A stretch of 64,000 nucleotides of DNA, taken from assembly GCA_964016885.1 (NCBI GenBank), contig OZ024742.1, forward strand, positions 77,128,001 to 77,192,000, given 5' to 3'. The notes beneath the pieces were generated by a model, which worked only from the letters and a program-made list of their open reading frames with translations, did not search any database and had not been told where the DNA came from. Below, piece by piece: positions 66-2,195 of the stretch (its first letter is position 1; each line of letters starts with the position of its first letter). This DNA is from Eledone cirrhosa. Taxonomy: Eukaryota. The position numbers and the translations under genes are program-made.

Positions 66-813
66 ATATATATATAAACAACTATCTGGTTGTGGAACCA
101 ACCAACCAACCAGAAATTTATAAATTTGTAAATTTATAAATATTTAATAAATTAAATTGAAGTGAAAGCAACTGGTGCGTGTGTTTCTTATTGGCAGCAT
201 GACCCTCCCAAAGTGTAACAATATCGGTTTCAACACACGATTTCAGATAAAGAATCTTGCTAAACAAATTCAGAAACGAAATATATATATATATATATAT
301 ATATATATAAGGATACTATTTATAGTTATGTATATTTTAAACTTGTTATAGTTATGTATAATTTAAACTATAAACAGGGAAGGTCAGTAATTTATTACTA
401 CCTTATTACCAGTAAGATAAATAACTCAATGTAAGAATATCAGTTATTCTACAGAGCAGTCATATAGAATAAGTGGGTTTGAAATTATTTGAAATGTAAG
501 ATATCGCCGAATTTTGACTAAATAAATTAAAGAAATGATTTAGCCTGCTAGTGGGGTTAACAACCCTCGGATAAATGGAAAAAGATGTACGTCAATACTC
601 ATCTTTTTCCATTTCTCCGAGAGTTCTTAACCGCACTATCAGGCTAAATAATTTCTTTAATTTATTTAGTCAAAATACGGCGATAGCTTACCTTTCAAAT
701 AATTTCAAATCCACTCACTGTTTCGAAAATATTCTCACTATATATATATATATATATATGTATATATATATATATAATTTACAAGGATCAAAGCTATGTT
801 CAAAGCATTTATT

Positions 814-872
814 CACTTACGATTGTTTCATCCAAACCTAGGCCTGGTGTCTTCGGAGCATTTTTCAATGGT
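814..872 (-). ncRNA. Degenerate hammerhead-like motif (U3-A8 core) in the inner fold-back
   Basis: Minus strand reads TTGAAAA...GAAA-caatcg-TA-agtg-AATAAA. The other arm has the palindromic stem III caattg. Stems I and II are imperfect. Confidence 0.4.
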
Positions 873-1067
873 TGTACATATAATTGACCTCCTATCCAAC
901 GCAAGAGACATACAGATACATAAATATATATTGATGTACAGTGGAGTGGCATATATTATACTATACTATATTTGTACAGCAATTCAAATTTAAAACCAAG
1001 CCTAGGTTTGGATTAAACAATTGTAAGTGAATAAATGCTTTGAACATAGCTTTGATCCTTGTAAATT

Positions 1068-1293
1068 ATATATATATATATATATATATATATATATATA
1101 TATATATATATATATATATATATATATACATATATATATACGTATATATATATATATATATATATTTATATATATATATATATATATATATATATATATA
1201 TATATATATATATATATATATATATATATATATATGTATATATATATGTATATATATATGTATATATATATATATACATATATATATATATAT
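1068..1293. repeat. (TA)n microsatellite
   Basis: Long near-perfect TA tract; source of the YIYI pseudo-ORFs. Confidence 0.98.
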
Positions 1294-1639
1294 AGTGAGA
1301 ATATTTTCGAAACAGCGAGTGGATTTGAAATTATTTGAAATGTAAGCTATCGCCGTATTTTGACTAAATGAATTAAAGAAATTATTTAGCCTGATAGTAG
1401 GGTTAAGAACTCTCGGAGAAATGGAAAAAGATGAGTATTGACGTACATCTTTTTCCATTTATCCGAGGGTTCTTAACCCCACTATCATGCTAAATCATTT
1501 CTTTAATTTATTTAGTCAAAATACGGCGATAGCTTACATTTCAAATAATTTCAAACCCACTCGCTGTTTCGAAAATATTCTTATTTGACATCATAATCGC
1601 TACGTTTATAGCTTCCAATTTGAATGGAAAAAGACGGGT

Positions 1640-1711
1640 GATGTGTTGGTGTAAATGGTAACACAGTGGTCCGGTTAACCAAAGATGTGGGTTCGACTCC
1701 CACGTACGTCG
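1640..1711 (+). tRNA. tRNA-like cloverleaf (pseudo-tRNA or SINE head) inside a repeat unit
   Basis: A box TGGTGTAAATGG and B box GGTTCGACTCC. D stem GTGT/ACAC, anticodon stem TGGT/ACCA with loop CCGGTTA, T stem GTGGG/CCCAC. The acceptor stem GATGTGT/GTACGTC has three G-U pairs. TTTTT follows about 10 nt downstream. Confidence 0.7.
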
Positions 1712-2195
1712 ATACTCATCTTTTTCCATTTCTCCGAGGGTTCTTAACCCCACTTTCAGGCTAAATAATTTCTTTAATTTATTTAGTCAAAATACTGCGA
1801 TAGCTTACATTTGATATATATATATATATATATATATATAAATATACACGGGTGTGTATGAGTGTGTATAGAAGATTATATTAATAAAAGGAATTCCAAC
1901 TTTGTCTGAATTACTCGTTTGATTTACTGTGACAGTTGAAAATTACAAACTTGACTGTCAACACAGAATATGAACCTGAAGTTTGCGAAAGCATGAAAAT
2001 ACTTGTTTACTTAACATTTAATATTCTTTGCGTGTAATTGTTTTTCACCGTTCCAAATAATGACGTATTATATTCGTTTTTTCCCGTTTTTTTGCCATGG
2101 AACGTTTCCACGAACCAAAGTATCGTGTTCCTGTCTTCCTCGGGTTGCAACGTTTTTTGAAATATTAACTTCTGCGTTCGCAGATTGACTTTGTT

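Follow-up and report, generated by a model that had tools for sequence, protein, structure and literature searches.

A family of non-coding 271-bp repeats carrying a tRNA-like cloverleaf works, in the Eledone cirrhosa genome, like the elements that depend on Penelope-like elements (PLEs). It is neither a retrozyme, as no hammerhead ribozyme (HHR) was found in it, nor a canonical SINE. That PLE machinery mobilises it is highly probable; its partner was not found among the PLEs sampled. Our preferred reading, to which we give a probability of roughly 0.6, is that of a PLE-copied repeat whose cloverleaf would serve as a Pol III promoter and a tRNA mimic, and not as a site of cutting.

The repeat unit and its copies in the window

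The window is the whole stretch of 64,000 nucleotides that was analysed. An earlier inspection of its letters (the original prediction) had noted a unit of about 271 bp restarting at 1717, with a cloverleaf and A and B boxes at 1640-1711. Sequence comparison recovered the same unit, and ARAGORN and Rfam agreed on the cloverleaf, with an Rfam tRNA score of 44.1 bits for a cut-off of 29. Positions in the unit are counted from window 1446, which places the tRNA at 195-266 and A58 at 251 (Table 1). The anticodon of the window copy is GGT, that of the family GGA.

Table 1. Features of the 271-bp family in the window.
Position	Strand	Feature	Basis
1446..1716	+	complete 271-bp repeat unit, subfamily A, without ORF; begins again at 1717	sequence comparison
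1640..1711	+	tRNA-like cloverleaf, closest to host tRNA-Gln, short variable arm	ARAGORN, Rfam
1647..1658	+	A box; D arm almost the same as in host tRNA-Gln	
1690..1700	+	B box / T-loop; A58 = 1696	
~1690-1709 (unit ~245-264)	+	zone in which copies most often break off at their 5' side	
1621..1639	+	leader; its predicted pairing with the trailer would lengthen the acceptor stem by ~17 bp	
1636-1637	+	minor 5' end cluster at -4/-3	
1712..1731	+	trailer, pairing with the leader	
1721-1725	+	T5 run, Pol III terminator-like, 10 nt past the tRNA	
1717..1812	+	partial second unit, short-type 3' start site (unit 96), adjoins (TA)n 1814-1846	
1294..1448	-	arm in inverted orientation, running from unit 257 to 140; its 3' end, of the long type, adjoins (TA)n 1067-1293	
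472..739	both arms	tRNA-less fold-back: minus arm 472-587, plus arm 585-739	
34326..34625		tRNA-less fold-back, symmetric at GTAC, flanked by (TA)n left and right; two long-type ends	
38209..38312	-	single arm, subfamily B (98%), GTAC to short-type end, (TA)n on both sides	

All four sites singled out beforehand belong to the same family. The fragment at 38209-38312 is a member as proposed, but of subfamily B and not of the window unit's subfamily A. Arm 1294-1448 and segment 1446-1812 together form one fold-back with a long and a short end; 34326-34625, with two long ends, is an exception to the rule described below. Segments 472-776 and 1257-1561 are 96% inverted duplicates of each other, and are therefore probably not separate insertions. 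Window 472-1561 as a whole is a nested palindrome, in which these inverted copies surround another fold-back, 779-1064.

The three hairpins were thought to turn at GTAC. This is true of 34326-34625, but not of 472-739 and 1294-1585, where an arm ending in ATGTAC meets unit position 1 of the other arm with a 3-nt ATG/CAT overlap. Similarly, the expected (TA)n adjoins the copies at 1294, 34326-34625 and 38209-38312, but not the 472 end.

Family size and subfamilies

A DNA search of the genome returned 2,240 candidates, 40 of which were scored; many were full units, in tandems, 89-94% identical to the window unit. Exact genomic matches numbered at least 5,546 for an 18-mer of the trailer, 1,764 for an 18-mer of the tRNA and 2,898 for a 17-18-mer of the subfamily A tail, and none for each of the reversed controls. 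Four subfamilies were resolved: A, B and C are abundant, D is rare and the oldest. ARAGORN called the cloverleaf in 26 of the 30 top-hit loci (anticodon GGA in 25), which rules out that it is a one-off insertion.

As an unbiased sample we used the first 100 listed matches of the subfamily A tail, in chromosome order. Removal of duplicate loci, and of arms below 86% identity or shorter than 40 nt, left 81 loci with 130 arms. Only 22 of the 81 loci contain the whole tRNA.

Across the partly overlapping family loci sampled, ARAGORN made 129 tRNA-Ser(GGA) calls. A functional tRNA-Ser(GGA) is expected to have a long variable arm, a purine at position 37 and a paired 27-43. The repeat has a 4-nt variable loop, T37 and a G27-A43 mismatch, which exclude such a gene; family copies are thus miscalled as tRNA-Ser(GGA) genes by ARAGORN.

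Subfamily variants and the tandem joint were also seen in the fragmented contigs of X1 and X4. More divergent relatives with a different trailer may form a fifth subfamily. At two loci, a short (TA)n lies inside subfamily D units at the position of the long start, a sign that the tandem unit may have captured its own target. In an array of about 10 units with a period of 272 (C4:61008000-61014000), near-identical neighbours are intermixed with others that diverge by 10-19 nt; local duplication took place here on top of insertion.

Insertions follow a two-start rule common to ORF-bearing PLEs

Read in the sense of the tRNA, 118 of 125 outer 3' ends fall into two clusters, unit 80-110 (short type) and unit 130-147 (long type), and 104 of the 125 adjoin (TA)n. 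The clusters are about 35-45 nt apart (median spacing 41.5 from BLAST ends). Fold-backs account for 44 of the 81 loci. Their joint is 5'-to-5' in all 44, and the two arms start in (TA)n at separate internal sites, 35-45 nt from each other: a long end was paired with a short one in 38 of the 44, a long with a long in none and a short with a short in one (long+short in 38/39, p = 7e-11). TA flanks were present on both sides of 49 loci, on one side of 24 and on neither side of 8. No target-site duplication (TSD) was detected at the 81 loci, where the lone non-TA flanking repeat of at least 8 nt is itself TA-rich.

As controls we used ORF-bearing PLEs of the same genome, found in searches with the RT encoded in the window (33,137 candidates) and with PF01541. 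Each has exactly two TA-adjoining ends, spaced by 33, 62 or 85 nt. Their fold-backs were long+short in 4/4 and 6/6 cases in two Neptune-like families, and in 3/3 cases in a PLE family with a 713-aa frame, after removal of pure-TA artefact matches. In the parts of the literature available to us, PAc of the anole has two RT start sites, cleaves both strands and is predicted to form a dimer (PMC11167929), PLEs often have their tail at one end only (PMC8557442), and the tail signature in both reports is the same as that of the 271-bp family. Mobilisation by PLE machinery, suspected from the window copies, is strongly preferred because the two-end, fold-back and long+short pattern is common to ORF-bearing PLEs, and the TA-adjoining start clusters, the 5'-to-5' joints and the missing TSDs support it.

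A SINE of the ordinary kind, dependent on a LINE such as the RTE at 5889-9310, could also be tRNA-derived, with (TA)n as its tail and twin priming as the source of inversions, and this RTE likewise ends in a partial tandem beside (AT)n. However, the RTE 3' end has no similarity to the unit. The TA-rich character of the sole flanking repeat, the scarcity of whole tRNAs and the fact that both outer ends of a fold-back are defined 3' start sites are further arguments against it. We consider this explanation largely refuted.

The element might also spread at the DNA level, as a satellite, a fold-back or a Helentron-like element with the tRNA as a passenger. Arrays of up to ~10 units with near-identical neighbours do point to local DNA duplication, but ends that are polar, 5' stops at RNA structure, a conserved tRNA fold and a long+short rule identical to that of ORF-bearing PLEs make such an origin very improbable.

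A conserved cloverleaf, likely from tRNA-Gln

A tRNA-Gln origin of the cloverleaf is likely rather than proven. Subfamily D retains the D arm of host tRNA-Gln genes, and subfamily C is identical to host tRNA-Gln in 46 of 74 columns. These host genes form large clusters (C1 ~168.21-168.28 Mb; a 277-bp tandem on C9), and some of the clustered copies have a CTA anticodon.

Between subfamilies, the tRNA is 85-97% identical, versus 60-76% for the tail. Compared with host tRNA-Gln, 20 of 21 stem pairs are still paired in A, C and D, with both sides changed in 9-10 of them; subfamily B has two acceptor-stem mismatches. In the helix that leader and trailer would form, one pair covaries, A-T versus T-A, in 13 of 17 D copies. 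In these sequence comparisons the cloverleaf fold proves to be under selection. The ~17-bp acceptor extension folds with z -3.0 and its minus strand with z -3.3, so that folding energy alone cannot give the RNA strand. The RNA sense is assignable to the tRNA strand, because G-U pairs are kept on that strand, 3' ends are clustered and 5' ends are ragged.

A Pol III transcription unit is plausible: A and B boxes are intact in subfamilies A-C. Against it, the T5 terminator lies only 10 nt past the tRNA, and subfamily D is without the B-box A58. A PLE-mobilised repeat could instead use the cloverleaf solely as RNA, for stability, export or the binding of tRNA-binding proteins, on templates made when Pol II reads through host or tandem loci. 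A promoter does not need the stems and the 17-bp extension that are kept here with compensatory changes, and the amplification of D without A58, the position of the T5 run and the extension of most tRNA-bearing arms upstream of any Pol III start would all agree with such a role. We nevertheless hold it to be rather doubtful, since the A and B boxes are perfect in the three abundant subfamilies and a purine 3-4 nt ahead of the tRNA is where 5' ends are most frequent; Sm-alpha, in the part of the report available, provides a Pol III precedent (PMC6765202).

Searches for a hammerhead and for a partner

The earlier impression that the unit contains no convincing HHR was upheld. CTGANGA occurred in 0/32 units on either strand (regex), Rfam matched the tRNA alone on the unit, and a custom hammerhead descriptor gave no exact match and 1-mismatch matches at chance level; this descriptor has low sensitivity, recovering 3 of 9 control motifs exactly, and a very deviant HHR could escape it. 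A possible relic, made up of GAAA-ATAT-TC and a stem at unit 96-146, was discarded, being present in subfamily A only and absent from B, C and D, as was a minus-strand CTGATAG...GAAA motif, whose C3-G8 pair is broken. When the acceptor extension was compared with the bulge-helix-bulge motif, its polarity was wrong by inspection. A missing HHR needs no substitute, because PAc insertion in vitro does not need HHR cleavage (PMC11167929) and Naiads are without canonical HHRs (PMC8557442), according to the sections of these papers at hand.

No tail was shared with the abundant 713-aa PLE, with 30 + 20 GIY-YIG loci or with the RTE, in a search that covered a small part of more than 10,000 GIY-YIG candidates and in which no Naiad-type element was among those sampled. 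When the tail was compared with 12 PLE 3' regions, 2 of 48 tests reached ≤4/200 shuffles, and neither was reproduced in sister copies or other subfamilies. The suggestion that the unit is the pLTR of an ORF-bearing PLE found no backing, as no pLTR homology to an autonomous PLE was seen in the sampled families. Four same-sense fusions to ORFs of the 713-aa clade were rejected as partners: they involve different families and look like secondary insertions, and the single testable case violates the long+short rule. At C1:194158000-194167999, a family arm is fused directly into a 713-aa PLE ORF inside a fold-back, by secondary insertion or template switch.

Copies break off mostly just 3' of the T-loop and rarely at RNase P or Z sites

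Among the 72 subfamily A arms at risk, 46 end between unit 245 and 263; most of these ends are at 256-257, a place where CATG anneals to itself or AT pairs with the target. The tRNA itself holds the main 5' boundary, immediately 3' of its T-loop, and the ends are spread, not at a single bond. With matched anchors, break-off at this place was found in 17 of 23 A/C loci, which have A58, versus 3 of 28 D loci, which have T58 (p = 7e-6; T58 in 21/21 D scored). Genome counts of trailer and tRNA agree in direction, 5546:1764 in A-C versus 34:33 in D. To judge from this contrast, copies have a T-loop-dependent 5' boundary.

Symmetric turns, as read from spacings among the first 100 listed trailer 18-mer matches, occurred at CATG (9), GTAC (2) and ACGT (2), all within one CATGTACGT run; these three self-complementary 4-mers overlap, and GTAC is one of the places at which arms join. 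The T-stem and the CATGTACGT run are the same in D as in A, yet D has no hot spot, so GTAC is not the cause of turning. As D has T-stem and run but T58, it appears that the T-loop sets the 5' barrier and that the palindromes only mark joining points.

A58 of the tRNA T-loop is a site of m1A modification, at which RT can stall. The simplest reading that the data suggest is a stall of RT either at m1A58 or at a tRNA-like T54-A58 elbow. No m1A misincorporation signature was seen, A58 being changed in 2/99. The A58/T58 contrast is confounded by the age and rarity of D, by its other T-loop changes and by its possible use of another partner.

A second 5' cluster covers -6 to +7 of the tRNA (23 of the 54 ends within -45..+33, p = 6e-6) and peaks at -4/-3, at a purine. 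The peak fits a Pol III start or, equally, a stall caused by leader-helix structure, and fits an RNase P cut poorly; a small cluster similar to it is present at unit 11-15.

In the original prediction, RNase P and Z were to define the RNA ends in place of a ribozyme. At the RNase Z site, 2 of the 75 arms reaching the region stop and nearly all cross it. At the RNase P site, 1 of 101 tRNA-bearing arms ends exactly at +1 and 3 at -1, while 62 extend past -7 and another 11 have 3-6 nt left ahead of the site, so that 73 of 101 retain upstream bases. These counts do not support the idea. A wider version, in which host tRNA nucleases replace the ribozyme and RNase P/Z or a T-loop/T-stem cut sets the template 5' ends, agrees with the lack of a canonical HHR and with a T-arm boundary that varies with T-loop sequence, as a tRNA-shape-dependent cut would, and up to 12 of 101 arms, ending at -1..+7, are compatible with a P cut followed by truncation. 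It is unlikely in our view: besides the counts at the two sites, the T-arm ends are scattered over unit 247-264 and not at one bond, and PAc and the Naiads indicate that no replacement is required.

Discussion

In the reading we prefer, a TA-targeting PLE RT/endonuclease would copy the RNA of the 271-bp unit, and the tRNA-Gln-like cloverleaf would act as an internal Pol III promoter and as a folded tRNA mimic. A PLE dimer would prime both strands of a TA nick at two sites, a mode demonstrated in vitro for anole PAc. The RT moving 5' would stall at the T-loop elbow, owing to m1A58 or to the T54-A58 fold, and the stalled cDNAs would anneal at the neighbouring CATG/GTAC/ACGT run or to target AT, giving the common tRNA-less arms of ~155 nt. 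The templates would be either transcripts that Pol III begins near -4 and that read through T5, or longer transcripts of tandem or host origin; in most of them neither the P nor the Z site would be cut. Against this explanation, most Pol III transcripts would end at the T5 run and so lack the RT-binding tail, D was amplified without the B-box A58, and 62 of 101 arms require templates starting upstream of -7. The identity of the enzyme, Pol III transcription and m1A58 are what we infer from sequence.

More tentatively, and with odds well below even, the family could be a ribozyme-less Penelope parasite whose tRNA mimic is treated as real by the host, by m1A58 or T-arm cleavage, and replaces the hammerhead. 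If so, thousands of insertions preserve the traces of an enzyme's action, and the role of the hammerhead in Sm-alpha and retrozymes has passed to the mimic.

The closest precedent, as far as the available parts of the reports go, is Sm-alpha/Sj-alpha of Schistosoma, which is tRNA-Gln-derived (PMC2770079), as our family probably is, and likewise tandem. Sm-alpha, apparently transcribed by Pol III, forms tandem units of a few hundred bp with a hammerhead (PMC6765202); the hammerhead is active there, whereas none was found in the 271-bp family, which keeps a full cloverleaf with its 17-bp acceptor extension and for which the two-start, long+short PLE signature is demonstrated. Metazoan non-LTR retrozymes, proposed to be PLE-dependent (PMC7229834; bioRxiv 10.64898/2026.07.22.740005), are alike in being non-coding and tandem, with units of a few hundred bp, but in the portions available they are defined by a type I HHR, the canonical form of which was absent from all 32 units. 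Non-autonomous Chlamys (MRC1) and Naiad/Neptune elements have in common with the family partial tandems, an inverted 5'-truncated arm, a 30-40-bp tail at one end only and (TA)n targets, and Naiads likewise have no canonical HHR; in contrast to our family, their 3' ends are also those of an autonomous family, and the available part of the source mentions no tRNA domain (PMC8557442).

Canonical tRNA-derived SINEs also have a tRNA-related region with A and B boxes. In the 271-bp family, unlike in these, the tRNA is internal or missing in most copies, TSDs and a LINE tail are absent, and the whole fold is conserved. In MALAT1 mascRNA and NEAT1 menRNA, a tRNA mimic inside a longer RNA is cut by RNases P and Z; the ends of 271-bp copies do not match these sites. 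A PLE-dependent element with a tRNA cloverleaf and no HHR was not described in the literature searched, which excluded subscription journals and Repbase/Dfam, nor is such a repeat family described in the available parts of PMC13282606 and PMC8967140. We take the family to be a new, ribozyme-less form of PLE-dependent non-autonomous element.

With this family, tRNA-derived parasitism of the SINE-like kind reaches beyond LINEs to PLE machinery, on direct structural evidence and without a hammerhead. The long+short rule, seen in 38/44 fold-backs and matched by the autonomous controls, argues for dimeric two-site priming in vivo and accounts for inverted pLTRs. As a minimal natural substrate, the 271-nt unit could be used to learn what a PLE RT recognises, and the subfamilies with A58 and with T58 provide a natural experiment on the way tRNA fold or modification shapes insertions.

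Other elements in the window and genome

Window 2025-5520 is a copy of the very abundant 713-aa PLE family (33,137 genome candidates), with ORF pieces at 2859-3755 and 3775-4533. The family has an RT, a C-terminal GIY-YIG-like domain, a variant hammerhead core (CAGAAGA) and two 3' ends separated by 85 nt; the pLTR also occurs at 2025-2539, 30038-30441, 35940-36701 and 42807-42880. A canonical minimal type I hammerhead (CTGAAGA...GAAA) lies in window 1-280, in a TA-targeted family that has two ends 56 nt apart and long+short fold-backs in 5/5 cases. Several Neptune-like PLE families have variant hammerheads with a UUGA core and a palindromic CCGG stem III; one variant, with GCAA instead of GAAA, may be inactive. 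A Penelope/Poseidon-type RT fragment (Pfam RVT_1) is present on the minus strand at 29297-30049.

The RTE-type LINE at 5889-9310 has a 272-bp 3' partial tandem beside (AT)n; part of the element's 3' region recurs in inverted orientation at 41315-41703. A different abundant SINE-like family of ~190 bp occupies 10510-10716, 25680-26174, 33060-33282, 47912-48542, 55715-55880, 60346-60541 and 63494-64000, forming a 196-bp tandem at the window end.
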